Positions 1-42,957 of a DNA stretch of 64,000 bases are shown in pieces. Positions within the stretch are counted from its first letter, which is position 1, and every line of letters starts with the position of its first letter. The notes below the pieces were generated by a model that saw only the letters and a program-made list of their open reading frames with translations, ran no database searches and was not told the origin of the DNA. The DNA lies in sequence record PP400780, one strand, 5' to 3'. The stretch is from Escherichia phage FL18. The position numbers were made by a program, and so were the translations under genes.

Positions 1-128
1 CCAAAACAAATGGAGAACAAAATGAAACTTTTGCTTATTGCTTATGTTATAGTACAATACAATTATCCAATGTTTACGTATAACATGGTAAATGGTGTAA
101 TGAATCTTATTGAAGCGAGTATGGTAAA

Positions 129-308
129 ATGACACGTGAACAAGCTAATAAATTGATGGACCTTATCCGTGACTTACGTGAAGCCGATTCAGATTTGAAT
201 GATGTAGCTTATCATGCGGTAAATGATAACGGAGACTTTTATGAAAATCAGGTTGATGCTTGTCAGAATGATTTGGTGAATTTTGTTGAAACTTTAATTG
301 GTGAATAA
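129..308 (+). CDS. hypothetical small protein (59 aa)
   Basis: ATG at 129, TAA at 306-308, immediately upstream of next gene; below ORF-track size cutoff, found by manual translation. Confidence 0.3.
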   Translation: MTREQANKLMDLIRDLREADSDLNDVAYHAVNDNGDFYENQVDACQNDLVNFVETLIGE

Positions 309-309
309 T

Positions 310-840
310 ATGAAAACTGTAATTGAAACGACTGAGTTGTTTGGTGATTTATGTATCGAAAAACGTGGTTATGCTTACGTTCTGACACAAGAAGATGATG
401 CGGTTACTATTCTTCCTATGGAACTGGACAAGATTTTGAAACTCAATCCATCAGGCCATGCATCTGTAATTAACATTGGTGAAGACCTTCAAGTTCGTTT
501 TTATCACGGACTTTATAGTGGGGTTAATATCGAAACCGAAGATGAATGTTTTTCTATTAATAATTGGAAAACATTTGTCACTAAGGTGAAAGAATTCATG
601 GAATCTGAAACAGCCAAAAAGGCCAAACTTCAATGGGCTAAATGCCGTAATGCTTTTATTACAAATCAGGACCGCCCTGACTATACAACAGTCCTAGGCG
701 TTAATCCTTCTTATGAAGATGGTGATGTCATAGTTATTCGCCAAATTGATGACCTTCGTCAACATATCATTACATTAGACAAAGATGAGGCAGTTGCTCT
801 TAAAGCTTATCTCGATTCTATTATCCCGACTTTGAAATAA
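310..840 (+). CDS. hypothetical protein
   Basis: ORF track 298..840; first ATG at 310 (MKTVIETTELF...) taken as start. Confidence 0.55.
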   Translation: MKTVIETTELFGDLCIEKRGYAYVLTQEDDAVTILPMELDKILKLNPSGHASVINIGEDLQVRFYHGLYSGVNIETEDECFSINNWKTFVTKVKEFMESETAKKAKLQWAKCRNAFITNQDRPDYTTVLGVNPSYEDGDVIVIRQIDDLRQHIITLDKDEAVALKAYLDSIIPTLK

Positions 841-849
841 GGAATTATT

Positions 850-1323
850 ATGATTATCAATGAAAACTCTTGGCACTTTAAAATTTATACCGCGTTTAAT
901 AGTACATGGAATCGTCCGAAAACGTTGTGTGCTTATTTTTGGAAAACGTTAATCCCAGTATTGGCTGCTTCAATTATTGGATTTGCGATTTTAGCAGCAG
1001 TCACAATCATTGGCCAGGAAATTTTAACTAAATTCTTTGTTTTTAGCAGTCTATGGACATTAGTTCCGGCTTCAATTGGTGTAGGCATTTTAATGGTAGC
1101 AGTCATGGCTTTTATTGCTACCGGGTTGGTAATTGGTCCGTCTTGGTTGTTAGACAAATATAACGACAGAAAATATTATAAAGAAATTGAGCTCATTGCG
1201 CAAAACCAAGAACGAATTAAAAATGGACTTGAGCCTATTGAACGTAAGAAATCATTAATAGGTGAATACCTTAAAGCTCGTAAAGAAAAAGTCTGTCCTA
1301 CTCTTGAATATAAGGCTAAATGA
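850..1323 (+). CDS. predicted membrane protein
   Basis: long hydrophobic segments (LIPVLAASIIGFAILAAVTIIG; LVPASIGVGILMVAVMAFIATGLVIGP); stop overlaps next start. Confidence 0.55.
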   Translation: MIINENSWHFKIYTAFNSTWNRPKTLCAYFWKTLIPVLAASIIGFAILAAVTIIGQEILTKFFVFSSLWTLVPASIGVGILMVAVMAFIATGLVIGPSWLLDKYNDRKYYKEIELIAQNQERIKNGLEPIERKKSLIGEYLKARKEKVCPTLEYKAK

Positions 1324-2309
1324 TGAAAACGATTGTTAAGTCTTACTTTGGTAGCCACCTTTATGGAACGTCTACTCCTGAATCTGACGTCGATTTTAAA
1401 GAAATTTATGTCCCTCATGCTCGTGATATCTTGACCGGTAACGTTAAAGAACATATGAGCAAGAACACGAATAACACATCTTCTAAGAACACAAAAGACG
1501 ATGTGGATCATGAGTTGTATAGTCTCAAATATTTCTTTAAACTAGCTGCGGATGGTGAAACCGTCGCATTAGATATGCTTCACACTCCACCAAGTCTAGT
1601 AGTTAAATCTGATTTGCCTGATGTATGGAAGTATATTCAAGATAACAGGTCTCGTTTCTATACTACTAACATGAAATCTTATTTAGGGTATGTCCGTAAG
1701 CAAGCTTCTAAATACGGTGTCAAGGGTTCTCGACTGGCTGTTCTTCGTCAAGCCCTTAAACGTTCTAATGAATGGGGACAATACTTTGATAATGGTGCAG
1801 TAATTCGTTTATCACATATGAAGAATGTTCTGCCTGTAGGTGAATTTGCTTCGTGGGTTGAAACCGAAAACGAGAAAACAGGTAAGCAAACATTCTATAA
1901 TCTGTTAGACCGTAAATTCCAAGATACGTTAACCAATAAAGAGTTCAATGCCATCCTGGTTAAACTGGAAGAGAACTATGGCGAACGTGCTCGTAAGGCA
2001 GAAGCCAACGAAGGTATTGACTGGAAAGCATTGAGTCATGCATGTCGTGGTGGACTTCAATTATTGGAAATTTACAAAACCGGCGACCTGGTTTACCCAC
2101 TTCAGGATGCTCCATTTATTCTCGATGTTAAGCTTGGTAAACATACGTTTAAAACTGTACAAGAATTCCTAGAAGATATCGTTGACCAAGTTGAACATGC
2201 GTCAGAACAAGCCGCTAAGAACGGTATGCAACAAAAAGTAGATATGAGTTTCTGGGATGACTTCCTTGAACAAGTCTACTTAGAAAACCACAATTCGTAC
2301 TATAAATGA
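1320..2309 (+). CDS. predicted nucleotidyltransferase (Pol-beta superfamily minimal NTase fold)
   Basis: N-terminal motif GSHLYGTSTPESDVDF (G-S ... D-x-D) typical of minimal nucleotidyltransferase fold; function otherwise unknown. Confidence 0.5.
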   Translation: MMKTIVKSYFGSHLYGTSTPESDVDFKEIYVPHARDILTGNVKEHMSKNTNNTSSKNTKDDVDHELYSLKYFFKLAADGETVALDMLHTPPSLVVKSDLPDVWKYIQDNRSRFYTTNMKSYLGYVRKQASKYGVKGSRLAVLRQALKRSNEWGQYFDNGAVIRLSHMKNVLPVGEFASWVETENEKTGKQTFYNLLDRKFQDTLTNKEFNAILVKLEENYGERARKAEANEGIDWKALSHACRGGLQLLEIYKTGDLVYPLQDAPFILDVKLGKHTFKTVQEFLEDIVDQVEHASEQAAKNGMQQKVDMSFWDDFLEQVYLENHNSYYK

Positions 2310-2311
2310 TA

Positions 2312-2330
2312 AGGGCCTTCGGGCCCTTTA
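2312..2330 (+). terminator. stem-loop (GGGCC-TTCG-GGCCC) after nucleotidyltransferase gene
   Basis: GC-rich inverted repeat with TTCG tetraloop directly after stop codon; weak U-tract. Confidence 0.45.
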
Positions 2331-2351
2331 GGGGGTCAAAATATTTTTAAA

Positions 2352-2392
2352 AAGTAGTGTACACGCTTTTAGGATATGTTATTATAGACCTA
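2352..2392 (+). promoter_or_regulatory. T4-type early promoter (GTGTACA ... TATTATAG) with conserved leader ATGTTATTATAGACCTATCAAAACAAGAGGAG
   Basis: -35-like GTGTACA, AT-rich -10, conserved leader shared with 5 other sites in window. Confidence 0.5.
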
Positions 2393-2415
2393 TCAAAACA
2401 AGAGGAGAAAACAAA

Positions 2416-2634
2416 ATGAAAACCAAAATGTTAGAAATGATTCGTGAAGCAGGTGATAAAGGTCTTATGGTTAACACTCGTGATGCAGACCAACGTCAAG
2501 CATTCGGTGAACTGAAAGCTAAAGGTCTAGTTAAAGCATCCTTAGGAATTGGTAATGCATTACGAGTCACCTTAACCCCAGCCGGTAAAGCAGTGTTCTT
2601 TCAACCTCTTACCAAAAAATCTCGTCGCAAATAA
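2416..2634 (+). CDS. hypothetical protein (72 aa)
   Basis: ORF with GAGGAG SD 8 nt upstream of ATG. Confidence 0.55.
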   Translation: MKTKMLEMIREAGDKGLMVNTRDADQRQAFGELKAKGLVKASLGIGNALRVTLTPAGKAVFFQPLTKKSRRK

Positions 2635-2672
2635 TTGTTTACTTTTGCTTTAAACATGTTATTATAGACCTA
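2634..2672 (+). promoter_or_regulatory. early/middle promoter (TTGTTTAC plus TGCTTTA MotA-box-like, conserved leader)
   Basis: ttgtttacttttgctttaaacatgttattatagacctatc upstream of 2683 ORF. Confidence 0.45.
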
Positions 2673-2682
2673 TCGAAACGAA

Positions 2683-3684
2683 ATGAGTAAATTGGAGAAT
2701 AAAATGTTCAACGTTCAAATCAAAAAAGGTATCTATCGTAATAACGAAATCTCTGGTTCTTATGTTGCCACAAAGACCTGGTTCCCGGCAAAGCTTAATC
2801 CTGAATGTTCCCACTTAGGTGATGGTAAAATTTTCGTTATGATTGATGGTTCTGAACGTGGAGTATGGGTCTTCAAATCAGACATCATAATGGAAGGAGT
2901 TGAGACATCGCCAGTTGCAGTTGTTGAAAGCACTGAAGATATGAAAACTCGTATCAACAAACGCTTTAAAGTAATGAACATGATGACGAATGGCATTATC
3001 GATGGCAAAATTCGTTCACTCATTATTTCAGGTGCAGCTGGTATTGGTAAGACGTATTCTCTGGATAAAGCACTTAATAATGCTAATGATAACGGTTTCA
3101 TCAAATACAAAAGCATTAATGGTAAAATCTCTGGTATTGGCCTTTACGAACAACTTTGGCCCAACCGTGATGCAGACAGCGTTCTCTTAATCGACGACGT
3201 TGACGTATTCTCAGATATGGACATCTTGAACCTTCTTAAAGCAGCATTAGATACCGGAGATAAACGCAAAGTTTGTTGGAGCACTGCGTCATCTTATCTC
3301 GACGATAAGGGTATTGATAAAGAATTTGAGTTTGAAGGTACTATCGTTTTCATTACAAACGTTGATATCGATAAAGAGTTAGAACGCGGTTCTAAACTTG
3401 CTCCACACCTTCAAGCTTTAGTATCTCGTTCAGTGTATCTCGACCTTGGAGTACACTCTAATGAAGAGATTATGGTTCGAGTTGAAGATGTAATATTATC
3501 TACTGACATGATGCAGAAACGTGGTCTGACGGATGCAGAAACGTATAAAGCATTGTCCTGGATGAAGGCTAACGTATCTCGTCTTCGCAATGTATCATTA
3601 CGTACGGCTCTTTATGTAGCAGATTTTATTTCAACTGATAAAGATGGTTGGGAAGAAATCTCGGAAGTTACTTTACTGAAATAA
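2683..3684 (+). CDS. P-loop NTPase (AAA-like ATPase)
   Basis: Walker A GAAGIGKT and Walker B-like LLIDDVD in translation. Confidence 0.55.
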   Translation: MSKLENKMFNVQIKKGIYRNNEISGSYVATKTWFPAKLNPECSHLGDGKIFVMIDGSERGVWVFKSDIIMEGVETSPVAVVESTEDMKTRINKRFKVMNMMTNGIIDGKIRSLIISGAAGIGKTYSLDKALNNANDNGFIKYKSINGKISGIGLYEQLWPNRDADSVLLIDDVDVFSDMDILNLLKAALDTGDKRKVCWSTASSYLDDKGIDKEFEFEGTIVFITNVDIDKELERGSKLAPHLQALVSRSVYLDLGVHSNEEIMVRVEDVILSTDMMQKRGLTDAETYKALSWMKANVSRLRNVSLRTALYVADFISTDKDGWEEISEVTLLK

Positions 3685-3822
3685 GCTTATAGGAAGTTCT
3701 GAGGTAACAAAAGCCATAAAGATGAATAATCATATGGCTTACCTCAAAGAAGGACACCAGGAACCTACTGAGGGCATAGAAATATTTAAAAATAATGATG
3801 TACAAATCAAAGAGGATATGTT

Positions 3823-4110
3823 ATGGATTTTATGCAAAAAATTAAAGCCGCAGTCGAACTCTATGCTCATCGTATGGTTAGTTCTACAATGCAATATAGC
3901 GAGGAGGTTCGCCAGGACTCTTCCTTGAAAGGAAAAACTAAAGCCTTAATTACCTTAGATCGTTTGCAAAAGAATGCTATAGAGATGCTCCAGTACGACA
4001 AGGGTGTATATAAGAAAGAGCAGGAAGAGAAACTTAAATCTGAAAAATTACAAAAAATCCCGAAGTCTGTTTGGTTCAGTGGAAAAAATACCGAAAAAAG
4101 TTTCTTTTAG
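3823..4110 (+). CDS. hypothetical protein (95 aa)
   Basis: ORF with GAGGA SD 6 nt upstream of ATG. Confidence 0.45.
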   Translation: MDFMQKIKAAVELYAHRMVSSTMQYSEEVRQDSSLKGKTKALITLDRLQKNAIEMLQYDKGVYKKEQEEKLKSEKLQKIPKSVWFSGKNTEKSFF

Positions 4111-4150
4111 TTGTTTACAAGGTCTATGGTTATGTTATTATAGACCTATC
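4111..4150 (+). promoter_or_regulatory. T4-type early promoter with stem-loop-embedded -10 (GGTCTA ... TAGACC)
   Basis: ttgtttacaaggtctatggttatgttattatagacctatc; inverted repeat GGTCTA/TAGACC flanks the -10. Confidence 0.5.
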
Positions 4151-4168
4151 AACTACTGGAGGTAAAAC

Positions 4169-4696
4169 ATGAACGCTAAAGATATTTTCAACCTGGTAAA
4201 TTATAACGACGGTAAATTTAAATCTGAAGCACAAAGTAAGTTCTTTAATGACATTGCTTATGGTAATGAGATTACCGTGGACGGAGGTCAGATTTTCAAA
4301 TCTCGCTGGAATTGGATTGTTATCATAGATTCAGTTGGAATTGTTGAAGTCTACAAAAACACTAACAAAAAACGTACATTATTCTGGTCTCGTGAAACTA
4401 ACGAGCAGTACAAAAAGGATAAAGCATCTCGTTTATCCAAAGTAACCCAGGAAGATATCGAGTTTATCAAGAAAGATATCGAGATGTACGAAAATTTAAT
4501 TGCTGAAGACCAGGCAGTACTCGATAAGTTTGATGAAATTAAAGCTTCTCGTGAAATCCCTGACTTCATGAAAGAAACAGTAAACGAACGATACGCTCTC
4601 ACTTCAGAACGTATTGCAAACTATACAAAACAGAAAGCAGAACGTATTAGTACTCTTCGGAAATTTGAAGAACGTTTAAAGACGGTTCACGCATAA
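4169..4696 (+). CDS. hypothetical protein (175 aa)
   Basis: ORF with GGAGG SD upstream. Confidence 0.5.
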   Translation: MNAKDIFNLVNYNDGKFKSEAQSKFFNDIAYGNEITVDGGQIFKSRWNWIVIIDSVGIVEVYKNTNKKRTLFWSRETNEQYKKDKASRLSKVTQEDIEFIKKDIEMYENLIAEDQAVLDKFDEIKASREIPDFMKETVNERYALTSERIANYTKQKAERISTLRKFEERLKTVHA

Positions 4697-4758
4697 ACGC
4701 TTTACCCAAGGACGGGTTATAATGGTTTTGAGTTCCAATTCAATCTGAGGAAATAGTT

Positions 4759-5754
4759 ATGAGCATTACATCTTATGCGGTAAAACATGAAATTAACGGT
4801 TTATGTGCTTCACAGATTAAAGTGTGGTTTAAAGACCATAATGATCGCAGAGCACTTAATTATGAACAAATTGCTATCCAAGTTCATCAATTACTGGTTA
4901 GTAAATTTGATTTTCATATGCCGTCTGAAATCTATACTAATCTACCGCGAGCGCTTATTAAAGCGTGTAAAGGTTATGGAAAATCAATGGCTGATGGAAT
5001 CTTCAGCGCGCTGAATAAACTTAACGTTCTGTCGATGATTAACTCTAACAATATCCTGCGTAATTTAGGACGTACTGATTTGTTCGGTCGTGAACAGGGT
5101 AAAATGCCTTTGAAATGGATTGTTGCTCATCTTAACGAGAACCAAACACGTTTTCTGGCTGTATCAGCACGTTTACAAATGGGCCTAGATCGTCAGATGA
5201 ACTTTAAAACTCATCCACGTTATTCAGGTTCAACAGACTTTTATAAATGTGAGCTTCAAAAGGTCGGTGGCAAAACTGTCTTAGTAGTTCGTGTAACTTT
5301 TGAAGGACGACGTCAAGGATATTTTAACCTAATTGGCTCTGGTCTTAAACATTGCGGATTTATCGACGAAGTTGATATCAAGCGAGACGGCATTGGATAT
5401 CGTATTGGATATGTTTGTACTCTTAAAGAAGAGATTTTAGGCCCGATCCCAGGACTAAAAGACGTTAGATATAAAGACGAGCTCGTTGAAGAAATAAAAG
5501 AAGTTGAATATGATATCAACCAAGAAGATGCTCTTAAAGACCTTATTGATGAACTAAACCAAGACGTTATTCCGGTTCAGAAATTTGAATCAAAACATGC
5601 TGAGCAAATCAAATACTTTGAAGCTTTGATTAACGAACTTAATGTAACTATTCAACAGACTGACGATGAAATCTCACGATTAGCAGGCTTAAACGGTAAA
5701 AATAAAACAGAACGAGCTAATCTTATTCAAGTAGTAAAACTTCTTAAGGAATGA
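4759..5754 (+). CDS. hypothetical protein with C-terminal coiled-coil-like region
   Basis: 331-aa ORF preceded by promoter-like TTTACCC...TATAAT at 4698-4723. Confidence 0.5.
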   Translation: MSITSYAVKHEINGLCASQIKVWFKDHNDRRALNYEQIAIQVHQLLVSKFDFHMPSEIYTNLPRALIKACKGYGKSMADGIFSALNKLNVLSMINSNNILRNLGRTDLFGREQGKMPLKWIVAHLNENQTRFLAVSARLQMGLDRQMNFKTHPRYSGSTDFYKCELQKVGGKTVLVVRVTFEGRRQGYFNLIGSGLKHCGFIDEVDIKRDGIGYRIGYVCTLKEEILGPIPGLKDVRYKDELVEEIKEVEYDINQEDALKDLIDELNQDVIPVQKFESKHAEQIKYFEALINELNVTIQQTDDEISRLAGLNGKNKTERANLIQVVKLLKE

Positions 5755-5811
5755 TGTACAACCAAGGATGGTTGGAGTATAATGAATCTATCTTAACGAG
5801 AGGAAAATATT

Positions 5812-6765
5812 ATGACACGTTCACATTACATTGATTATTTTGCAGGTCTTATCGCTAACGTTCATGCCCAACGTGCTTCTGGTTCATTAGGATTTGATGT
5901 TCCACACCGAGTTGTAGTAAGTGGTATTCTTCGCGATTTTGGTACATACACAGGCCAAGAAAATCATATCTGTAAAGATACTCAGAATGCGTATTCTCAT
6001 TCATTAGGGACACTGCTTCAATGGTTCAAACGTTCTCGTTTATTATCTTCGACTGTAGCTCGCGATAACATTAAAAACTTTATGAAGCCGAGCTTTATTA
6101 AATCTGCGACATCTAAAACCGATTTGGTTGAATTCACTATTGTTAATGATGTTAAAAAGACTCATTTGGCTGATTGGTTATCTACCATTCCTGAAACTAA
6201 ATTTGCTGATAAATTTGCTTGTGAATTCAATAACCAAGTGAATATGCTTTTTAAACATTCTCGTAAATTATTTACAGGTGGCGATGGTCGTACAAATAAA
6301 GTTCATGCTAAAGATTGGGTTACTGCAGTATTCAAACCAACCGGTAATGGTAACGCATCATTGTCAATTGATATCCAGGTTCCTTATTACTACTCACGTA
6401 ATCTCGGTACCATGAAAGCCGAAGAAATTAATAAGCGCAACAAAACCGTTCGTTCGCTGTCTTATAAACTTTGTACGATGTTACAGATTATGGATGTTGT
6501 TGAAATGTTCGACGAAACCGAAGATAACGGTTCAATGTTATTCAGTTCTAATATTCGAATTAAGCTGAAGAACCCTAATACATATAAACCTAAGCCTATT
6601 AAAGAACCTAAAGTAGAAAAAGTTGATAACTTAAGAGAAGAACGCGAATATCTCAAATCTCGTCTGAAAGAAGTCGAAGCCCAGATTGCAGAACAGACTA
6701 AATCGTTAAAAGCTCTGAATGCGAAAGCGGATGGTTTACGAAATGCCATTGAGGTATTGAAATGA
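5812..6765 (+). CDS. hypothetical protein with C-terminal coiled-coil-like region
   Basis: 317-aa ORF with GAGG SD; preceded by GTACAACCAAGGATGGTTGGAGTATAAT promoter cassette. Confidence 0.5.
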   Translation: MTRSHYIDYFAGLIANVHAQRASGSLGFDVPHRVVVSGILRDFGTYTGQENHICKDTQNAYSHSLGTLLQWFKRSRLLSSTVARDNIKNFMKPSFIKSATSKTDLVEFTIVNDVKKTHLADWLSTIPETKFADKFACEFNNQVNMLFKHSRKLFTGGDGRTNKVHAKDWVTAVFKPTGNGNASLSIDIQVPYYYSRNLGTMKAEEINKRNKTVRSLSYKLCTMLQIMDVVEMFDETEDNGSMLFSSNIRIKLKNPNTYKPKPIKEPKVEKVDNLREEREYLKSRLKEVEAQIAEQTKSLKALNAKADGLRNAIEVLK

Positions 6766-7076
6766 AAAAGCGTCTATTAGAAGACATTGCAGCTTCAAGT
6801 AATTCCAGTTTAATTAAAATTATTATGGCCGGTGAAGAAGACGATCTGGAAATGCGCGGAAAGATTCATGGTTGTGATGATTATAGCAGCCCTATTAATT
6901 GGAATTCTGTAATGGTCATGGTTGAACGCCGCGAACGTGCTTCTAAAAACGTTCCTAATTGCCCTGAATGTGGAACTGAACAGGTGCAATTGGTCCATTG
7001 GCAGACTAATAATCTTCGTTATAAATGTCGCCATTGTAAACACCGATTTGACCGAGAAGAAAATGACCAAGCGTAA
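6762..7076 (+). CDS. zinc-ribbon protein
   Basis: CPECG ... CRHC paired Cys motifs near C-terminus. Confidence 0.5.
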
Positions 7077-7221
7077 AGAATATATGGAGACTGCTGAAAA
7101 GGCAGTCCGTGAATTAGCAATAGCTTATTATAATGAACATGGTAAATTTCCTGATAGATACAGCGTGCTTAAATCAGCTTTAACTCGTTCATATAAAAAA
7201 TATGCTATCAGAAGTAAGTGA
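7063..7221 (+). CDS. hypothetical small protein (52 aa)
   Basis: in-frame ATG inside ORF-track entry 6922..7221; the upstream part of that entry overlaps the previous gene. Confidence 0.3.
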
Positions 7222-7307
7222 TATTATATACAAACATAAAGAACAAACGGGCCAAAGTCTTGATTACGACGAGACTTTTAAACAAGTACTAGGAATTAAG
7301 GAATAAT

Positions 7308-7571
7308 ATGTTTAAAGTATATGGTTATGATAGCAACATCCATAAATGTGTGTATTGCGATAATGCAAAACGTCTTTTGACCGTGAAGAAACAGCCATTT
7401 GAATTTATCAATATTATGCCGGAAAAAGGTGTTTTTGATGATGAGAAAATTGCTGAGCTTCTGACTAAACTAGGTCGTGATACTCAAATCGGCTTGACAA
7501 TGCCTCAGGTATTTGCTCCTGATGGAAGTCATATTGGTGGATTTGACCAACTGCGAGAATATTTTAAATGA
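7308..7571 (+). CDS. nrdC: glutaredoxin/thioredoxin (T4 NrdC-like)
   Basis: 87 aa, CVYC active-site motif, near-identical to recalled T4 NrdC sequence. Confidence 0.85.
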   Translation: MFKVYGYDSNIHKCVYCDNAKRLLTVKKQPFEFINIMPEKGVFDDEKIAELLTKLGRDTQIGLTMPQVFAPDGSHIGGFDQLREYFK

Positions 7572-7903
7572 ACGATATTGATTTTGCCAAAGCATATAAA
7601 TTTGTAGCAACTCTTCTCGGCCCTGACGCTCCTACTAAGCTTGAAGTTTTAAATTCGATTCCGACTTCATTGGTTCGAGATGCTGAAATATGGACATGGG
7701 ACGACCCAGCTGTTTGTGAAGACCTGTACATTCTGATGAATGACATGATGGTTAAAAAGCCTGAAACAATGGTTACTATTACTGTTGAAGAATATAATCG
7801 CCTACAAGCCATCGAAGAGCTTCTGTGGAATGTTGAATCTGATTTGCCATCTGGGCTAGAATCCTGGGTTGATTATGAAGAGCTCAATAAGCTCCGCGGT
7901 TAA
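7568..7903 (+). CDS. hypothetical protein (111 aa)
   Basis: ORF translationally coupled to nrdC (ATGA overlap). Confidence 0.45.
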   Translation: MNDIDFAKAYKFVATLLGPDAPTKLEVLNSIPTSLVRDAEIWTWDDPAVCEDLYILMNDMMVKKPETMVTITVEEYNRLQAIEELLWNVESDLPSGLESWVDYEELNKLRG

Positions 7904-8004
7904 ACCGTGGTATTCGGCTCGACTGTCTCCCATCGAGCCAGACGTCGAAACAGTTTACAACGACGAAGAAACATGTTATGATGAGCCTTCAATAAATGAA
8001 TTAA

Positions 8005-8202
8005 TTGATATGGAAATGGGAAGAGATTATTATGCAAGTTAAATTATTGTACCGTTTATTAAAAAATGGCAAGCATGATTGGTATTTGCTTATTAAAACC
8101 GATCAGAATTTTTTCTCCGGACACCCATTTACAGTTCGTCCTACTAAACGTCAGCTTCGCAAAGCTAAACGTTCTCATCGTAACTTTTATAACGTTTACT
8201 AA
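8005..8202 (+). CDS. hypothetical small basic protein
   Basis: C-terminal motif VRPTKRQLRKAKRSH resembles C-terminus of ORF 35942..36154 (VRPTKRQIRQEKRKF). Confidence 0.35.
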   Translation: MIWKWEEIIMQVKLLYRLLKNGKHDWYLLIKTDQNFFSGHPFTVRPTKRQLRKAKRSHRNFYNVY

Positions 8203-8241: not shown

Positions 8242-8715
8242 ATGTTATTATCAGGCGCAAAATATAAAGAAGAAAAACAAAAATTTTATGATGCACAGAA
8301 TGGTAAGTGTCCTATTTGCCACCGTGAATTAGACCCTGATGTTCAAGGTAACCATCTTGACCACGACCACGAATTAAACGGGCCAAAAGCCGGTAGAGTT
8401 CGTGGATTACTCTGTAATCTGTGCAACGCAGCAGAAGGTCAAATGAAGCATAAGTTCAACCGTTCCGGTCTTAAAGGACGTGGTGTCGACTACCTCGAAT
8501 GGCTTGAAGCTCTTCTTGTTTATTTGAAACAAGATTATTCTGATAATAATATCCATCCTAATTTTGTTCCAGACAAAACTAAAGAGTTCTCAAGACTAGG
8601 TAAAGAGGAAATGATGGCTGAGATGCTTCAAAGAGGATTTGAATATAATGAATCTGACACCAAAACACAGTTAATAACTTCATTTAAGAAGCAGCTTAGA
8701 AAGAGTTTAAAATGA
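8242..8715 (+). CDS. 49: endonuclease VII (Holliday junction resolvase)
   Basis: 157 aa, near-identical to recalled T4 gp49 (MLL.GK.YKEEKQKFYDAQNGKC ... HLDHDHELNGPKAG). Confidence 0.9.
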   Translation: MLLSGAKYKEEKQKFYDAQNGKCPICHRELDPDVQGNHLDHDHELNGPKAGRVRGLLCNLCNAAEGQMKHKFNRSGLKGRGVDYLEWLEALLVYLKQDYSDNNIHPNFVPDKTKEFSRLGKEEMMAEMLQRGFEYNESDTKTQLITSFKKQLRKSLK

Positions 8716-9380
8716 ATGTAGTATATAAACTATCATTTATTAGTAGAATTAATGCTAAAACCCCGCCATATTATTATATTGGAAGTAAAACCAATTGCAC
8801 TTTTGACGGAACGAATATTATTGATAAAAATGGTAAATTTTATTATTCGTCTTCGTCATCTTCCGAATTTCAAAAAGCTTTGTTGAAAGAAACACCGAAA
8901 GTTGAAATATTATATTTTCAATTAGTCGGAGATGAACAAATAACTAGCATTGAAGCTGAATTTCAAAAGAATATAGAAAAAGATATATGGAATAAAGAGT
9001 ATTTTAATTTAGCATATGCTAATGGTCAATTTACAACGTACGGTGTTTCTCCTTCTAAAGAAACTAGAGAAAAGCAATCAATAACCATGATTAAAAGAAA
9101 TCGTAATAAAGGTAAAAATCATGGATTTTATGGAAAGCATCATACTAATTTAGCCAGAAAGAAAATATCAGAAGCTTCTAAAAAATACTGGAAAGAAAAT
9201 CCACATCATGGATTTTCGCACACAAAGGAAGCTAAAATTAAAATTGGAATTTCATCTTCTATCAGGCATAAAGGAAGTGGAAATCCGATGTACGGCGTAA
9301 AACCTTGGAAAACTCCTAGCGTTGTTCCATGGAATTTAGGTAAAATGAAAGAAATGGTAAAACGAGTAAAACATGCATAG
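8712..9380 (+). CDS. Seg-like homing endonuclease (GIY-YIG-like N-terminus, NUMOD-like repeats)
   Basis: VYKLSF ... YYYIGSK motif; repeated K/R-rich helix motifs; GNPMYG; paralogous to ORF 18918..19451. Confidence 0.55.
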   Translation: MNVVYKLSFISRINAKTPPYYYIGSKTNCTFDGTNIIDKNGKFYYSSSSSSEFQKALLKETPKVEILYFQLVGDEQITSIEAEFQKNIEKDIWNKEYFNLAYANGQFTTYGVSPSKETREKQSITMIKRNRNKGKNHGFYGKHHTNLARKKISEASKKYWKENPHHGFSHTKEAKIKIGISSSIRHKGSGNPMYGVKPWKTPSVVPWNLGKMKEMVKRVKHA

Positions 9381-10203
9381 GTATTATATAATTTATAAAA
9401 TAACAAATATAATTAATTCAAAGGAATATATCGGTGCGCATAGCACCGATAACATAAATGATGGTTATATGGGATCAGGAACATTGATTCGTGCCGCTTT
9501 ATTAAAATATGGTAGAAAAAATTTTAATAAAGAAATTTTACATGTTTTTGATAATGAAAAACAAATGTATGATAAAGAAGCTGAACTCGTAACCGAAGAG
9601 TATTGTCTAAAAGAAAATACATATAATATTAAACCTGGTGGAAAAGGTGGAACTGCCTATGAACAGACACTTGAACATCGCCGCAAAAATAGTTTAGCAA
9701 ATAAAGGTAAAAAGAGAACAGAAGAAACTAAAATAGCTATTTCACGTGCTTTAAAGAAATATAAACGTACGCCAGAGCATCAAGCAAATTTAAATAAAGC
9801 CGTAAGCATAGCTATGAAGCGAAAAGATGTTAGAAGTAAATTAGCTGGAGAGCGGTCTGAGAAAGATAAATTACCTATATCAAACGGTGTTAAAAAATAT
9901 TACAATTCTTTGAGTGAAGAAGAACGCGAACTTCATCGCAAGCGAATTATTGAAGGTAAAAAGAATTCTCCCATGTCATTGGAATCTAGACAAAAGCTTT
10001 CAAAAGCTTTAAAAGGACTTCAAGTTGGTTCAAAAAATCCAATGTATGGAAAAATTTCTCCAACTAGCAAAACCGTTTCAGTTGACGGTATTAAATATGA
10101 TTCAATTAAAAAGTGCTCAAATGCCATAAAAGTTTCTAGACATCTTATACTAAAACGCTGTAATTCTACTGATGAAGCTTGGAAAAATTGGATATTATTA
10201 TGA
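9373..10203 (+). CDS. GIY-YIG homing endonuclease (Seg-like)
   Basis: YYIIYKITNIINSKEYIGAHST (GIY ... YIG), downstream N/E residues, NUMOD3-like repeats (TEETKIAISRALK; SLESRQKLSKALKG; NPMYGK). Confidence 0.75.
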   Translation: MHRYYIIYKITNIINSKEYIGAHSTDNINDGYMGSGTLIRAALLKYGRKNFNKEILHVFDNEKQMYDKEAELVTEEYCLKENTYNIKPGGKGGTAYEQTLEHRRKNSLANKGKKRTEETKIAISRALKKYKRTPEHQANLNKAVSIAMKRKDVRSKLAGERSEKDKLPISNGVKKYYNSLSEEERELHRKRIIEGKKNSPMSLESRQKLSKALKGLQVGSKNPMYGKISPTSKTVSVDGIKYDSIKKCSNAIKVSRHLILKRCNSTDEAWKNWILL

Positions 10204-10670
10204 ATTATGACAGAATATACCCGTGTTGCTTTGTGAATGGCCCTGGATGCAGGGTCGTTCTTTTCGTTACAGGTTGTTTGCATAAATGCGAAGGGTGTTA
10301 TAATAAATCAACATGGAATGCTAGAAATGGTGTTCCATTCACTGGTGAAACACTAGAACAATTAATTGAATGTTTGAATAATGATTATATAGAAGGATTG
10401 ACTATAACCGGAGGTGACCCTCTTTATCCTGATAACAGAGACGTGATTCACTCTGTGGTTCAAACTATTAAAAATCTTTATCCCAATAAAAGCATTTGGT
10501 TGTGGACAGGATATAAGTTTGAAGATATTAAACAACTAGAAATGCTTAAATATGTTGATGTTATTATTGATGGGAAGTATGAGAAAAATCTTCCGACTAA
10601 AAAGCTGTGGCGAGGATCAGATAATCAGCGACTTTGGTCAAATACCGATGTGGTGTGGAAACATGATTAA
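10200..10670 (+). CDS. nrdG: anaerobic ribonucleotide reductase activating protein (radical SAM)
   Basis: 156 aa from ATG at 10200 (MNYDRIYPCCFVNGPGCRVVLFVTGCLHKCEGCYN); matches recalled T4 NrdG. Confidence 0.85.
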   Translation: MNYDRIYPCCFVNGPGCRVVLFVTGCLHKCEGCYNKSTWNARNGVPFTGETLEQLIECLNNDYIEGLTITGGDPLYPDNRDVIHSVVQTIKNLYPNKSIWLWTGYKFEDIKQLEMLKYVDVIIDGKYEKNLPTKKLWRGSDNQRLWSNTDVVWKHD

Positions 10671-11003: not shown

Positions 11004-11315
11004 ATGATTAGTTTTGAGCGGTATGTAGTAGAGAGTTGGAATGGTTTTGATATGTTCGGTAATGACTATTATTTCTATGAATGTAGTCTGAACCCAAGCT
11101 TCTGGGCTGGACGTGAACAAGACCTCGAAGAAATCAACGCTCGTGCCGATTTGTTAGGTGAACTGCCTACGGTTTATTTTACCTTTGATGAATCCGGCTT
11201 CGTTATCCAGGTTTATTTTCCTGAAGAAAACTCTGGTGAGGATTCTGTTAATCCTCCTTATTGGGCTTACCAAGGAATTATTTCTCGTGGAACAAAACTC
11301 GAACTTAAAGAATAA
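11004..11315 (+). CDS. hypothetical protein (103 aa)
   Basis: ORF-track entry, early-operon orientation. Confidence 0.45.
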   Translation: MISFERYVVESWNGFDMFGNDYYFYECSLNPSFWAGREQDLEEINARADLLGELPTVYFTFDESGFVIQVYFPEENSGEDSVNPPYWAYQGIISRGTKLELKE

Positions 11316-11316
11316 G

Positions 11317-11610
11317 ATTGAAGTCTATGGAATTCCAGATGAAGTAGGTCGTTGTCCTGGATGTCAATCAGTTACAAAACTTCTAAAGGAGCTCAATGCT
11401 CCTTTTACTTTCTATAAAGTTCTTACAAATAATGGTAAGATTGAGTATGATCGTCCACTGATTGTATCTCTTGCTAAACGCGCTGGATTCACATCTCTTA
11501 ACATTCGTTATCCAGTCATTTTCATTAATGATTCTAGACAAAAGAATATTAAACACTTCAAAGAAACTCTCATTTCACTTGGATATGATAGAGATATCAT
11601 AGAAGATTAA
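11317..11610 (+). CDS. glutaredoxin-like protein (NrdH-like, CPGC motif); start codon uncertain
   Basis: IEVYGIPDEVGRCPGCQS redox motif; no in-frame ATG/GTG after upstream gene stop, possible ATT start at 11317; syntenic with T4 nrdH. Confidence 0.45.
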   Translation: MEVYGIPDEVGRCPGCQSVTKLLKELNAPFTFYKVLTNNGKIEYDRPLIVSLAKRAGFTSLNIRYPVIFINDSRQKNIKHFKETLISLGYDRDIIED

Positions 11611-11613
11611 GAC

Positions 11614-11634
11614 GGGCCCTCTGGGCCTTTCTTT
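11614..11634 (+). terminator. stem-loop GGGCCC-TCT-GGGCC followed by T-rich tract
   Basis: inverted repeat immediately after stop at 11610. Confidence 0.5.
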
Positions 11635-11704
11635 CTCACATTCTGTATATTACCATTCTAAGCTATCGTTCCTTTCTTATCATTCCCTAAAATATTTTTC
11701 ACAA

Positions 11705-11742
11705 AGTTGTTTACAACGAGCTCAAACCGTGGTATTATTAAC
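11705..11742 (+). promoter_or_regulatory. T4-type early promoter (GTTTACAA ... TATTATTA)
   Basis: aaagttgtttacaacgagctcaaaccgtggtattatta. Confidence 0.5.
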
Positions 11743-11768
11743 ATATGAATTGCCTTTGAGGATTTGAT

Positions 11769-11951
11769 ATGGTTGTGGTTGATAAAGAAATTAAAAAGGG
11801 ACAGTATTATCTTATTAATGGTAATGCTGTTCGCGTTACCTACGTAAATGGTTATGATGTTTATTATCTTATACTTAAGTTACATAAACACATGATTTGT
11901 GACCGTGCTGTATTTAGTTCAGTTGCTAAGGAAATTAAACTCCATGGGTAA
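11769..11951 (+). CDS. hypothetical protein (60 aa)
   Basis: ORF-track entry following promoter. Confidence 0.4.
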   Translation: MVVVDKEIKKGQYYLINGNAVRVTYVNGYDVYYLILKLHKHMICDRAVFSSVAKEIKLHG

Positions 11952-12237
11952 AACGTATCGTCGTAAAGACTTAAAAGTGCGTGATTATGACTATTTCGGA
12001 AAGCGTAAAGCTCCTGACGGTGTAAGTCATAAAGATATGGTTGAAAACATTTTTCGCTCAGATAAATGGCGTAGAATGAAAGGTATTGATTCAGAAGTTA
12101 AAGATGAGTTAAATCGTCAATTACGCGGTGAAGTAAGAAAGTTGAAAAAATCAGTTTACATTGACGATGATTTTGATTATAATACTTCTCAACGAGTTGC
12201 TAAACGTAAATCAAACGAGTGTTATCGTTACAGCTGA
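11944..12237 (+). CDS. hypothetical basic protein (97 aa)
   Basis: in-frame ATG (MGKTYRRKDLK...) within ORF-track entry 11899..12237. Confidence 0.45.
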   Translation: MGKTYRRKDLKVRDYDYFGKRKAPDGVSHKDMVENIFRSDKWRRMKGIDSEVKDELNRQLRGEVRKLKKSVYIDDDFDYNTSQRVAKRKSNECYRYS

Positions 12238-12376
12238 GGAAAATATGAATATCAAACGCATGCTTTTTAAGCAAGGGCTATATACTTTAAATGTTACTCC
12301 AAAAGGCGATACAACTAAGTGGTCAGTAAATGACTGGATTAAATTTATTGATGAAAACGGTAATTGGGAAATTTAA

Positions 12377-12577
12377 ATGAATCCTGAATCTAAATTATCG
12401 CAGCGAATTGCTGAAGAACGCGCCAAATTTTTCCAGAACATGAAACACAATGGTATTGAGGATGAAGTTTTTCTAAATTGGTTCTGGAATAATAAGTATG
12501 CAGCATGTGAAGGAGCTTTGTCATTGTCAGTCGCAATGATGTACGAAGGCTGGAAGGGTGCCAAAAAGTTTAGCTAA
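12377..12577 (+). CDS. hypothetical protein (66 aa)
   Basis: ORF-track entry; followed by terminator. Confidence 0.45.
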   Translation: MNPESKLSQRIAEERAKFFQNMKHNGIEDEVFLNWFWNNKYAACEGALSLSVAMMYEGWKGAKKFS

Positions 12578-12595
12578 GGGCTTCGGCCCTTTTTG
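12576..12595 (+). terminator. rho-independent terminator (AAGGGC-TTCG-GCCCTT-TTTT)
   Basis: perfect 6-bp GC stem, TTCG loop, T-tract. Confidence 0.6.
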
Positions 12596-12630
12596 GATAA
12601 TAAAATTTTTAACGTAATTGAGGATAATGT

Positions 12631-12957
12631 ATGACTATTCAAATTAAAAACGCCATCAATTCTTACGCATATGATAAAGTAGTTTCTTTGCTAGAAAAAG
12701 GCGATATTGTAACTCCTCAAATTTTGGATAAATGGGAAAAAGAGCTTCATCAAATGATGAAACAGAATGATCAGAAGATTGGACGCAACACTGTACGTGA
12801 ATTGTTGGTTCAATATATCTTGTCAGAATTTGATGTTAAAGCTTTTGGTGTAGAATCTAAAGCTTATCAAAAGCATGAAATTTCCGATAAAACTATTCGT
12901 CGCATGAAAAATCAACGCAAGAAAAAAATTGCAGACCTGAAAATTACTAAGGTATAA
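12631..12957 (+). CDS. hypothetical protein (108 aa)
   Basis: ORF with GAGGA SD upstream. Confidence 0.45.
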   Translation: MTIQIKNAINSYAYDKVVSLLEKGDIVTPQILDKWEKELHQMMKQNDQKIGRNTVRELLVQYILSEFDVKAFGVESKAYQKHEISDKTIRRMKNQRKKKIADLKITKV

Positions 12958-12959
12958 TT

Positions 12960-13175
12960 ATGAACGAAGCTCTTATTAACGATTTGCGTCTTGCTGGATA
13001 TGAAGTAAATACAAATGGCATTGGTTTAACTCAAATTGAAGGAAACGGATTCATCCTTGAGTATGAATTTAGCCAATGGTGGTTATATGCCAATTACGGC
13101 GAATTGATTGAATATGTTGACCAATTTGATTCACTAGATGCAGCTCTTGAAGCGGCTAAGTTGATGAATGTATGA
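12960..13175 (+). CDS. hypothetical protein (71 aa)
   Basis: tightly packed ORF. Confidence 0.45.
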   Translation: MNEALINDLRLAGYEVNTNGIGLTQIEGNGFILEYEFSQWWLYANYGELIEYVDQFDSLDAALEAAKLMNV

Positions 13176-13441
13176 AATTTATTAATATTTCTATTACTAT
13201 TGAAAATTATGGCATTTTCTATGTTGACCAATACATGAAAATTTCATTTTTCCCAAATAAGACTGGTGTTGGATATTGGGAAAGTCATGTTTCTGAATTA
13301 AATGAAAGTGAATATGTTAGCACACATGAAAAGTTTTTAGACTTTTTATATCATGCAGATTTAACTAGTCATTATATAGATATTCATGAATTTAAAAAGA
13401 TGATGGAGAAAGTGTTCCAAGCATACTGTTTACTTAGATAA
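13172..13441 (+). CDS. hypothetical protein (89 aa)
   Basis: ATGA-overlapping ORF. Confidence 0.45.
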   Translation: MKFINISITIENYGIFYVDQYMKISFFPNKTGVGYWESHVSELNESEYVSTHEKFLDFLYHADLTSHYIDIHEFKKMMEKVFQAYCLLR

Positions 13442-18921: not shown

Positions 18922-19451
18922 TAATTATGAATTTAATATATCTTATAACCTTTTATAATCGTGAGATTAAAAATGAATACCCGTGTTATTATATAGGTTC
19001 TAAAGTTTCGTGTCATTTTAATGGAAAGGATATTATTGAAGATTCTACCGGTAAAATATATACCGGTAGTGTTAATTCCTCGTATTCTCCTTTATATAAC
19101 AGATTAATAGACCAAGGCGAATATTCTGTAAAAATTTTAGGCGAAACCACATTAGACCCTAGAAGAATAGAAAGACTATTCCAACTCAATGTTAAAGCCG
19201 TTTCAAATGAAAAATATTTTAATAAGGCTTATGCTAACGAGAAGTCTAGAATATCAGCTAAAGGATATGCACCGTATAAAAATTTAAAAACAGGCAAAAT
19301 AGTAAAACTTTCTAAAAACGAAATAAACGAAGATTACGTCGGTGTTAGAAAAAATTGCAAATTGTCGGAGAATCATTTAAACGCAATTAGAGAATTTCAA
19401 AAAAACATATTGGACCAAAGAACGAAGAGAGAAAGTTTCTATTCGTTCTAA
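18918..19451 (+). CDS. Seg-like homing endonuclease N-terminal module (paralog of 8712..9380)
   Basis: IYLITFYNREIKNEYPCYYIGSK ... KYFNKAYANEK parallels VYKLSFISRINAKTPPYYYIGSK ... EYFNLAYANG. Confidence 0.5.
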   Translation: MIIMNLIYLITFYNREIKNEYPCYYIGSKVSCHFNGKDIIEDSTGKIYTGSVNSSYSPLYNRLIDQGEYSVKILGETTLDPRRIERLFQLNVKAVSNEKYFNKAYANEKSRISAKGYAPYKNLKTGKIVKLSKNEINEDYVGVRKNCKLSENHLNAIREFQKNILDQRTKRESFYSF

Positions 19452-19455
19452 AAAA

Positions 19456-19818
19456 ATGTTTAACGATAGAGATTTTGCTTTAAAATTTAAAGATATAATG
19501 AATTCTCCTAATGTTAAAGATAAAATAAAAATATCTAAAACATTGTATTGGTCTAAACCTGAAAATAGAGCAAAGGCCTCTATCGCAGCTTCGAAAAGAA
19601 ATGCAACCAAAGAATTTAAGGATAAATTCAGAAAATCTAAAGCTAGAGGTACATGGATATTTCATGAACAAAAATTAAAGGAATTGTGGATTGCTTTAGG
19701 AAAACCAAGTTATATTACATTTAGAAAACATGCAATTCAGCATGGTTTTAATGATGAATCATACCAAGGTGCTATCCGGTCTTGGACAAATTATTATGCT
19801 AATAGGAAACCTAAATGA
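19456..19818 (+). CDS. basic DNA-binding-like protein; possible C-terminal part of split homing endonuclease
   Basis: starts 4 nt after the stop of 18918..19451 in a different frame; K/R-rich. Confidence 0.4.
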   Translation: MFNDRDFALKFKDIMNSPNVKDKIKISKTLYWSKPENRAKASIAASKRNATKEFKDKFRKSKARGTWIFHEQKLKELWIALGKPSYITFRKHAIQHGFNDESYQGAIRSWTNYYANRKPK

Positions 19819-34920: not shown

Positions 34921-34943
34921 AAGGAGACTTCGGTCTCCTTTCG
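34921..34943 (+). terminator. stem-loop GGAGAC-TTCG-GTCTCC followed by T-rich tract
   Basis: inverted repeat after gene 41 stop. Confidence 0.55.
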
Positions 34944-35004
34944 GGGTTTACATCTTCCTCTAGGCATGATATGATGTACTTACACAAACCAAGAGGAAAA
35001 CATT

Positions 35005-35380: not shown

Positions 35381-35426
35381 TTTACTTCTCCGGTAGTTGT
35401 GTTATTATAGATCTATCAACTACTGG
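35381..35426 (+). promoter_or_regulatory. T4-type early promoter with -10 between long inverted repeat (CCGGTAGTTG / CAACTACTGG)
   Basis: gtttacttctccggtagttgtgttattatagatctatcaactactgg. Confidence 0.5.
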
Positions 35427-35434
35427 AGAACAAA

Positions 35435-36154: not shown

Positions 36155-36190
36155 CTGTTTACAAGCACCACATACTGTGTTACTATATTT
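36154..36190 (+). promoter_or_regulatory. T4-type early promoter (GTTTACAA ... TACTAT)
   Basis: ctgtttacaagcaccacatactgtgttactatatttctatc. Confidence 0.45.
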
Positions 36191-36214
36191 CTATCAACTA
36201 CAGAGGAAATTGAA

Positions 36215-36583: not shown

Positions 36584-36644
36584 TTGGTTTACGCAAAAGT
36601 TAAAACAAGATACTATAAACATAACAAATCAAGAGGAAATTAAC

Positions 36645-36936: not shown

Positions 36937-36956
36937 AAATCAACTAAGGAGTTAAA

Positions 36957-40815: not shown

Positions 40816-40842
40816 TTTTTACTTACTCAAGAGGAGAACAAT

Positions 40843-42932: not shown

Positions 42933-42957
42933 TTTATCAACCAGAGGAGAAACCTAA

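Follow-up and report, generated by a model that had tools for sequence, protein, structure and literature searches.

Repeated promoter/leader blocks in an RB69-like Escherichia phage fit T4-type early promoters and the published PeSL cassette

What are the short, nearly identical blocks that recur ahead of unrelated genes in Escherichia phage FL18, and why are they so alike? We analysed one stretch of 64,000 nucleotides from its sequence record (PP400780), which we call the window. The first 12 kb of the window matches hundreds of records of T-even phages, with Escherichia phages JM17, AV112, moha and ST0 as the best matches (95-97%). In local alignments RB69 (Mosigvirus) is 92-98% identical to nearly the full window, and T4 is 68-86% identical save for one patch at 97%. 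Judged by these alignments, the source of the window is an RB69-like (Mosigvirus) T-even phage. The plus strand carries early and middle genes in the order nrdC.11, nrdC.10, nrdC.8, nrdC.3, 49, nrdG, 55, 47, 46, 45, 44, 62, 43, uvsX, 41, imm, sp, 61, 56, mrh.2, modB, modA, srd, dda, dexA, motB, cef, 39, rIIA, denB, ndd, 52, motA and asiA. The late genes t, 38 and 37 lie on the minus strand from 60.8 kb on.

A sequence-only reading of the window had described these blocks as near-identical promoter/leader cassettes and sorted them into at least three families, whose copies we number A1-A6, B1-B3 and C1-C4. The copies do exist where that reading placed them (off by 1-3 nt at most), far above chance, and their likeness survives exact alignment, with cores that are exact or differ by one or two mismatches. 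The 16-mer TTATTATAGACCTATC of family A is found exactly at 2379, 2659 and 4135, with one mismatch at 35402 and 58074 and with two at 48901. When up to three mismatches are allowed, it has 8 matches in the whole window against 1.27 expected, a number reached in 0 of 100 shuffles. Family B has two exact copies of the 24-mer GGTATAGTAGTCCTATCAAATCAA, at 36920 and 55507 (0.00 expected), and its third copy at 54996-55011 has the 16 nt ATATAGTAGTCCTATC in common with them. A 26-mer of family C is found without mismatches at 5758 and 46787 and with two at 47345 (0.00 expected); the loose copy at 4698-4723 has only the hairpin loop and TATAAT in common with the other C copies. An unbiased direct-repeat search of the whole window also ranks the cassettes as its top families, D1-D9, with alignments of 59-77 nt at 60-88% identity.

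To describe the anatomy of the blocks we scanned the window for T[TG][TG]AC-N16-18-TAnnnT and kept those sites that are intergenic and followed by a Shine-Dalgarno sequence (SD) and a start codon. This extended scan gives 23 intergenic sites on the plus strand, each with an SD and a start codon downstream; on the minus strand of the window we were not able to find any convincing site. All 23 lie 20-44 nt ahead of the start codons of T4/RB69 early-gene orthologs. Aligned on the -10 element, they give the consensus aaAa..(G)TTTACA..aTGn-TATtAT-A.acCTATCaAa..AgaGGAg. The -35 element, usually preceded by G, is TTTAC[ATG] in 16 sites and TGTACA in the other 7, and the spacer measures 16 or 17 nt in every one. 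TGn is present in 18 of the 23 and is lacking in three C copies and in the promoters of ndd and imm. An UP region, assessed qualitatively, shows aaAa at about -41 to -38 and is A/T-rich farther upstream. Out of 22 sites scored, 16 have T-A-T at the predicted positions -1/+1/+2, the A falling 7 nt after the -10, and the leaders are 20-25 nt long in most sites and 32-44 nt in four. Conservation among the copies is strongest in the -35, TGn, -10 and +1. Note that the identification depends on the extended consensus, since a plain scan for sigma-70 hexamers over positions 1-8000 found 25 sites against 26.1 expected, that is, no enrichment in this A/T-rich DNA.

On this anatomy we read the cassettes as T4-type early promoters, each joined to the short 5' leader of the gene it would drive, a reading to which we give a probability of roughly 0.88. 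The unmodified sigma-70 RNA polymerase of the host would recognise the UP region, the -35, the spacer of 16-17 nt, TGn and the -10 TAtTAT. The predicted transcription start, 7 nt past the -10, is the A of the conserved CTATC, for example at 2392, 4148, 36934 and 58087; it would give leaders of 20-25 nt, or 32-44 nt in a few cases. Both the start positions and the early timing are predictions from orthology and consensus. The polymerase would thus be the shared trans-acting factor that the sequence-only reading had proposed, as far as the promoter is concerned; for the leaders with GGAG the factor is most likely RegB/S1, to which we return below. The context of NAD-capping promoters has a purine-rich consensus, and the C-C-T at -3 to -1 of the cassettes does not fit it. 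In RB69, early promoters carry GTTTAC at -36 to -31 and favour C at -3 to -1 (PMC1524935).

RB69 also provides a reference for the individual sites, in the form of a published list of 58 predicted early promoters (Nolan et al. 2006, PMC1524935, Additional file 3; numbers with the prefix Pe below). Of the 13 copies, 12 map to sites on this list, the exception being C4. A1-A6, B1-B3, C2 and C3 each have a positional ortholog on it, and C1 matches two of its sites. The name promoter/leader cassette is thus borne out for all copies but C4: each has a -35, a spacer of 16-17 nt, a -10 of the form TAnnAT, an SD with ATG and an RB69 ortholog on the published early list.

All features are on the plus strand. 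In family A, A1 (2358-2415; Pe:55296) comprises the predicted promoter and leader of a 72-aa ORF, a homolog of RB69ORF102c (ATG 2416). Its -35 TGTACA (2358-2363) is followed by TGn, the -10 TATTAT (2380-2385) and a predicted +1 at 2392, and a UUCG terminator hairpin lies upstream at 2311-2328. A2 (2638-2703; Pe:55018), with -35 TTTACT and -10 TATTAT at 2660-2665, stands with a 32-nt leader before nrdC.10 (ATG 2704), and A3 (4114-4168; Pe:53683) stands before nrdC.8 (ATG 4169). A4 (35381-35434; Pe:20537) precedes a homolog of RB69ORF040c (ATG 35435), A5 (48879-48935; Pe:6863; -10 TACTAT) precedes cef (ATG 48936), and A6 (58053-58119; Pe:162713), which has a leader of 33 nt and a UUCG terminator hairpin upstream at 58011-58028, precedes motA (ATG 58120). 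The B copies belong to sp (spackle, ATG 36957; B1, 36899-36956, Pe:19020, -10 TATAGT at 36922-36927), to a homolog of RB69ORF270c (ATG 55029; B2, 54974-55028, Pe:165795, -10 TATAGT) and to ndd.1 (ATG 55543; B3, 55486-55542, Pe:165283). Among the C copies, C1 (5755-5811; Pe:52042/51019; -10 TATAAT at 5778-5783) is a hybrid joint before nrdC.3 (ATG 5812), C2 (46784-46843; Pe:8947) belongs to a gene of the motB.1 region (ATG 46844) and C3 (47342-47400; Pe:8387) to motB itself (ATG 47401). C4 (4698-4758), upstream of nrdC.6 (ATG 4759), is degraded and absent from the RB69 early-promoter list: its hairpin ACCC-AAGGAC-GGGT is followed by TATAAT at 4718-4723, and the TTTACC before that lies only 11 nt from the -10, so that there is no correctly spaced -35.

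The extended scan also finds candidate promoters that had not been listed before. They precede ndd (55747-55819, Pe:165022, of a 'D' type, -10 TATAAT at 55770-55775), motB.2 (48300-48353, Pe:7443), a homolog of RB69ORF041c (34947-35004, Pe:20971, with a UUCG terminator before it at 34922-34939), imm.1 (36158-36214, Pe:19761, repeat family D3), imm (36588-36644, Pe:19331), mrh.2 (40786-40842, Pe:14950), modB (42264-42318, Pe:13466), modA (42901-42957, Pe:12829), srd (43642-43719, Pe:12088, with a leader of 44 nt) and asiA (60512-60571, ortholog region Pe:160217). The imm.1 leader CTATCAACTACAGAGG is similar to those of A3 and A4. A further site, upstream of a 55.6-like ORF (11710-11768), lies in the patch that is 97% identical to T4 and is nearly identical to the T4 site 41705.

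About half of the cassettes are overlaid by a hairpin on the sense strand. The sequence-only reading did not include these overlapping hairpins. A stem-loop adjoins or overlaps the promoter in B1-B3, C1-C4, A3, A4, A5, ndd and motB.2. In the C type both arms lie within the spacer; in A3, A5, the B copies and ndd they flank the -10, and in A4 and motB.2 one arm is in the spacer and the other at the SD. For example, the motB.2 spacer TCTCCTCTGGTT pairs with the SD leader AACCAGAGGAGA (MFE -23.9, z -6.5), and the A4 spacer TTCTCCGGTAGTTG with the leader CAACTACTGGAGAA, which includes the SD (MFE -20.1, z -5.3). Significant z values are also found for B3 (-4.6; TAGGATTA/TAGTCCTA, with a U.G wobble on the sense strand), ndd (-3.4; GAGAGC/GCTCTC bracketing the -10), A3 (-2.1, MFE -13.6; GGTCTAT at 4121-4127 and ATAGACC at 4140-4146, bracketing the -10) and B2 (-2.1; TAGGACTA/TAGTCCTA around the -10). 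The -10 of B1 is likewise bracketed by a hairpin (MFE -11.9), and A5 has the arms GGTCTAT/ATAGACC. There is no internal hairpin in A1, A2 and A6 (MFE z -0.3 to +0.9); A1 and A6 have only the separate UUCG terminator upstream, and A2 has none. In a swap test the complementarity between spacer and downstream region proved specific to the promoter, pairing being better within a promoter than across promoters (2 of 20000 permutations for the window, 0 of 20000 for T4).

The short C hairpins, CAACC-AAGGAT-GGTTG in the spacer of C1, CAACC-AAGGAC-GGTTG in C2 and CATCC-AAGGAT-GGATG in C3, the last compensatory with respect to C1 and C2, have individual MFE z values of -0.1 to -1.3, which are not significant. 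Their reality therefore rests on covariation across phages and not on energy. We collected C-type hairpins, whose stem overlaps the -35, from T-even contigs with a search anchored on the loop. The loop AAGGAY is invariant over six different, fully compensated stems in T4-like and RB69-like phages, namely CAACC/GGTTG, CATCC/GGATG, CTTCC/GGAGG, (A/G)CCAC/GTGGT, ACCC/GGGT and AGCC/GGCT. In this alignment 96.9% of cells are paired, four of the five pairs show compensatory changes and the covariation score was reached in 0 of 500 shuffles, while unrelated sequences that fit the search pattern almost never pair. The ndd/motB-type hairpin has its arms on the two sides of the -10; pairing holds in 99.1% of its cells and compensatory changes occur in 6 of its 7 pairs, again with a score reached in 0 of 500 shuffles. 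Here we count 14 G.U cells against one C.A cell, which argues that the hairpin acts on the sense strand, most simply as RNA. The covariation count argues for action of the embedded hairpins on the sense strand, probably as RNA. The covariation of the arms could in part reflect templated correction of quasi-palindromes rather than selection.

Because the arms lie upstream of or across the predicted start of the cassette, only transcripts begun farther upstream would be able to form the hairpins. The arms would occupy those promoter positions that tolerate change, and in the read-through RNA the hairpins would probably either attenuate the upstream message, make it more stable or hide the SD downstream. 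A scan of the whole window against Rfam gave no match at the gathering score. Could the hairpins instead be rho-independent terminators of the upstream genes that merely abut the promoters? True terminators with a UUCG tetraloop do precede A1, A6 and the promoter at 34947, and PMC2839356 describes a PeSL stem-loop of RB49 tested in a lacZ reporter and calls PeSL stem-loops effective terminators. On the other hand, no U-tract follows the hairpins of the B, C, ndd and A4 types, so that they are not classical intrinsic terminators, and their stems are short (5-8 bp) and A/T-rich. Furthermore, the SD forms the end of the hairpins in A4 and motB.2, and this suggests that they mask translation, like those at T4 e, soc, 49 and I-TevI (PMC3014915). 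We consider it unlikely that these hairpins are plain terminators, while keeping the idea in mind.

The leaders carry a possible second signal. All A copies and B1 have the SD GGAG. The RegB/S1 target is described as GG*AGRAYARAA, in the SD regions of early genes (Durand et al. 2006, via PMC3014915). The full string GGAGRAYARAA is present in the leaders of A2 (GGAGAATAAAA at 2694-2704) and A4 (35425-35435), and the window holds 3 such sites against 0.4 expected. A1, A3, A5, A6 and B1 have GGAG without the full consensus, and B2, B3 and the C copies have none. The gene regB sits outside the window; in RB69 it is reported to be divergent (PMC3014915). For part of the leaders, the factor that acts on them is probably the RegB/S1 endoribonuclease, and in several of them the GGAG/GAGG Shine-Dalgarno would double as a putative cleavage site.

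The AAGGAY loop resembles an SD and includes GGA, which is recognised by RegB. In the hairpins that bracket the -10, the mismatches tolerated are G.U on the sense strand. That the promoter-embedded hairpins are functional RNA elements with a specific partner, beyond generic structure, seems to us quite unlikely. If it were true, and the loops were RegB/S1, ribosome-binding or processing sites in read-through RNA, a single stretch of 40 nt would serve both as a promoter in DNA and as a processing signal in RNA, and the choice of promoter would be tied to the fate of the upstream message.

Next to the question of what the cassettes are stands the question of why they are so alike. When the columns of the 23 aligned promoters are shuffled, the consensus is retained and any sub-families are destroyed. 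Over 29 aligned columns, 10 pairs of promoters are at least 80% identical, against 0.24 expected from such shuffling (at most 4 in 2000 shuffles), and the sub-families are therefore real. They are not separate families, as had been proposed: in single linkage at 75% A and B join through intermediates such as the promoters of imm.1 and imm, and C alone stays separate. Several copies are mosaics. For example, A1 and A5 have the leader CAAAACAAGAGGAG in common, and A3 and A4 the sequence CAACTACTGGAG. In summary, three families simplify what is a partial continuum, one promoter class with sub-lineages and at least 23 intergenic sites.

Within a genome, paralogous promoters are 77-84% identical; orthologs are only 55-71% identical. 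Since paralogs are more alike than orthologs, this points to concerted evolution. The same scan applied to T4 finds promoters of the same design, which have sub-families of their own; the T4 records NC_000866 and AF158101 contain no annotated promoters that we could find. The promoters of motA, nrdC.10 and nrdC.8 form one sub-family here (TATTATAGACCTATC) and another in T4 (TACTATACAACTATCAACT). Among the positions specific to sub-families, -6 to -2 read AGACC here and ACAAC in T4. The cassette at T4 motB is the same as that of the window's ndd promoter, with the arms GGGACC/GGTCCC, and the T4 regB promoter has the layout of A4 and motB.2, in which the 3' arm of the hairpin contains the SD.

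Products of exchange between cassettes can be seen directly. Upstream of C1 the flanking sequence is that of RB69 Pe:52042, a site between nrdC.6 and nrdC.5, at 100% identity; downstream it matches the flank of Pe:51019, which lies between nrdC.5 and nrdC.3. The change from one to the other falls within the shared core of 26 bp, and nrdC.5 is missing from the window. By this comparison C1 is a hybrid in which two cassettes of RB69 have become one, with the loss of the intervening gene. The contiguous form of C1 is common to 20 records; among the matches listed, most others break at window position 5757. The second case concerns A1 and A2, which contain an exact direct repeat of 19 bp, 280 bp apart, on either side of the 72-aa ORF. 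KMB38, LF82-3 and HY126 have instead a single cassette, made of the upstream half of A1 and the leader of A2, without the ORF, which T4 lacks as well. A second segment that matches RB69 doubly, at 8137-8191, turned out to be a repeat in coding sequence and not a cassette joint.

Recombination in T4 occurs at very short homologies (PMC9391042). With dozens of copies that offer 20-80 nt of near identity, the efficient homologous recombination of the phage would use the cassettes as crossover points. Such crossovers would homogenise the paralogs of a genome into what look like families, and between two copies they would delete or insert the small early genes that lie between. The cassettes are one route of rearrangement among several and not the main one, since only 1 of about 12 breakpoints between the window and RB69 falls in a cassette; those outside are, among others, at pin, nrdD and rII and at an insertion between rpbA and gene 45. 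Of the recent duplication or recombination that had been suggested for the copies, exchange is thus found in the C1 and A1 x A2 hybrids. The copies are not recent duplicates, because they stand at conserved orthologous positions in RB69.

These conserved positions, together with the functional elements in all copies and the strongest conservation in -35, TGn, -10 and +1, could also mean that each copy was optimised alone for the same polymerase, without common descent or exchange. We regard such pure convergence as improbable. It does not account for the excess of similar pairs over the shuffled sets, which keep the consensus, nor for identity that runs through spacer and leader positions free to vary elsewhere (A2 and A6 are 78% identical across 77 nt). 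It is also at odds with the different sub-families of the orthologous motA, nrdC.10 and nrdC.8 promoters in T4 and here, and with the existence of hybrid cassettes.

Still less probable, in our view, is that the inverted repeats and the conserved block at -6 to +5 form an operator for a phage DNA-binding protein that shuts off the early promoters. The idea has some appeal, as the -10 of the B, A3, A5 and ndd cassettes stands between the arms of such a repeat, and the shut-off mechanism of T4 early promoters has been stated to be unresolved, AsiA and ModA being dispensable (PMC3014915; PMC2988021). However, the arms differ wholly between cassettes and covary, so that it is the pairing that is conserved and not a recognition sequence. 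An operator in duplex DNA would not favour G.T mismatches on the sense strand only (14 against 1), and A1, A2 and A6 have no repeat at all.

That the cassettes are MotA/AsiA-dependent middle promoters is barely conceivable: motA and asiA are encoded in the window, A2 contains the perfect MotA-box string TTTGCTTTA and the -10 TAnnnT is common to both classes (PMC1524935), but a MotA box, (a/t)(a/t)(a/t)TGCTTtA centred at -30, takes the place of the -35 at 11-13 nt from the -10 (PMC1524935) whereas the A2 string ends 7 nt before it, a TTTAC/TGTAC -35 at 16-17 nt is present in all copies but C4 whereas middle promoters have no -35 (PMC2988021), none of the 32 predicted middle promoters of RB69 coincides with a cassette ortholog, and motA and asiA would themselves be driven by cassettes. 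The A2 string is ruled out as a MotA box by its spacing and by the list of RB69 middle promoters.

The finding is real and the kind of element is already known, namely the T4-type early promoter or PeSL, with the same sites predicted in 2006 in the close relative RB69. What we add is a clean extra example with two natural crossover products, which leaves the current understanding unchallenged. A small residue of novelty lies in the formal covariation, the bias to the sense strand and the invariant AAGGAY loop, which suggest a specific role at the RNA level. For annotation, the blocks mark the starts of early transcription units (motA, asiA, modA/B, ndd, sp, imm) and the joints where small accessory genes come and go. 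Such joints help to explain the differences in gene content among otherwise near-identical therapeutic and environmental T-even isolates.

How do the cassettes compare with known systems? The early promoters of T4 have been described as 'uber' promoters with UP, -35, TGn and -10 elements plus extra consensus regions (PMC2988021). They (Liebig & Ruger 1989, J Mol Biol 208:517; reviewed by Hinton 2010, PMC2988021) have in common with the cassettes the A/T-rich UP region, the -35 GTTTAC(A/T), the spacer of 16-17 nt, TGn and the -10. Additional consensus near +1 and through the ribosome-binding site is shared as well, and so is the location on the early strand ahead of motA, asiA, modA/B, ndd, sp, imm and srd. 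They differ in the consensus after the -10, which is TATTAT-AGACCTATCAA here and TACTAT-ACAACTATCAACT in T4, and in that TGTACA replaces TTTACA in about a third of the copies here. Compared with the RegB/S1 target, most leaders here match just GGAG or GAGG. At T4 e, soc, 49 and I-TevI, hairpins mask the translation initiation regions in read-through transcripts (PMC3014915). A4 and motB.2 are alike in having the 5' arm upstream of their own predicted start and the 3' arm with the SD, so that only transcripts from upstream promoters are predicted to be masked. In the T4 genes, unlike here, the internal promoter is late.

The closest likeness is to the PeSL, or 'promoter-early stem-loop', which as published has a stem-loop between -35 and -10, over either box or upstream (Arbiol 2010, PMC2839356). 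The stem-loops are called effective terminators there, and the ORFs that they flank are reported to be excised as circles; the experiments that show this are confined to RB49/phi1. The accessible portions of the Arbiol 2010 and Comeau 2014 accounts of PeSLs mention neither the covariation, nor the bias of G.U cells to the sense strand, nor the constant loop AAGGAY. PeSLs (PMC2839356; PMC4122927) differ from the cassettes in their stems, which are short and A/T-rich here as against G(n)...C(n), and in that three A copies here have no internal stem-loop. Since A1, A2 and A6 have none, the label does not fit every copy; with this proviso, the composite as judged from its anatomy fits the published PeSL cassette. 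C4 corresponds to what PMC4122927 calls a 'half PeSL', and the T4/PST PeSL promoter consensus is given there as TTTACW-N17-TAYWAT. According to both papers (PMC2839356; PMC4122927), PeSLs, like the cassettes, consist of a strong early promoter of sigma-70 type, a stem-loop whose register varies, an SD and a start codon. PeSLs are also sited between small non-essential genes and are crossover points for their deletion or insertion, and the junctions of the C1 hybrid here and of the A1 x A2 hybrid in KMB38, LF82-3 and HY126 have a PeSL-like position.

In two of the cassettes, each of them a T4-type early promoter followed by a short leader with a Shine-Dalgarno (SD) sequence, we see that the spacer of the promoter can base-pair with the SD leader of its own gene. 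These are the A4 cassette ahead of the RB69ORF040c homolog (35386-35432) and the motB.2 cassette (48305-48349). The pairing extends over 12-14 bp, with z values of -5.3 and -6.5, respectively. The predicted hairpin would mask the SD in transcripts that read through from upstream, and the SD would stay free in transcripts started at the cassette's own promoter. The same layout is found at the T4 regB promoter.

Five G+C-rich hairpins with a UUCG tetraloop and a following T run (2311-2328, 12576-12591, 34922-34939, 50182-50197 and 58011-58028) are classic T4 intercistronic terminators. Three of them stand just ahead of an early promoter: the first lies before promoter A1, the third before the 34947 promoter of the RB69ORF041c homolog and the fifth before A6, the motA promoter.

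Several segments depart from the RB69-like backbone. T4 is 97% identical to the window over 11311-13186 (nrdH to the 55.x genes) and 68-86% identical over the remainder, whereas RB69 reaches just 76-89% in this patch; judging by these identities, it looks like a Tequatrovirus-derived segment within a Mosigvirus backbone. Within 8712-10203, all that is left of nrdD is a 222-aa ORF; the next ORF (276 aa) encodes a SegH-type homing endonuclease. Since 9304-10300 shares 99% identity with segH-nrdG in RB3, a T4-like phage, the alignment suggests a homing-associated exchange between genera.

Other differences from RB69 concern gene content. Both pin and RB69ORF087c are missing; the junction falls inside a 55-bp repeat (8137-8191) formed by the alike 3' ends of two coding sequences, with no promoter cassette there. 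About 917 bp between rpbA and gene 45 (18925-19840), carrying ORFs of 177 and 120 aa, are without an RB69 counterpart. In the rII region (53513-54325), the window lacks rIIB, and its rIIA is cut off after ~258 codons. The junction at about 54280-54288 joins RB69 positions 1439 and 166474, a deletion of ~2.5 kb relative to RB69, and among 159 matching phage records it is common to AV116 (OR352946) only.

The first bases of the window (2-24) fall within the leader CAAAACAAATGGAGAACAAAATG of another B-type cassette; its promoter, orthologous to the predicted RB69 early promoter Pe:57689, is lost beyond the window edge. Upstream of T4 nrdC.3 (T4 record 49860-49913), the C-type hairpin AGCC-AAGGAT-GGCT is retained, followed by GGAGTATAAATC, but the site is without a -35; it is a degraded cassette that resembles C4, the degraded C-type copy upstream of nrdC.6 (4698-4758).
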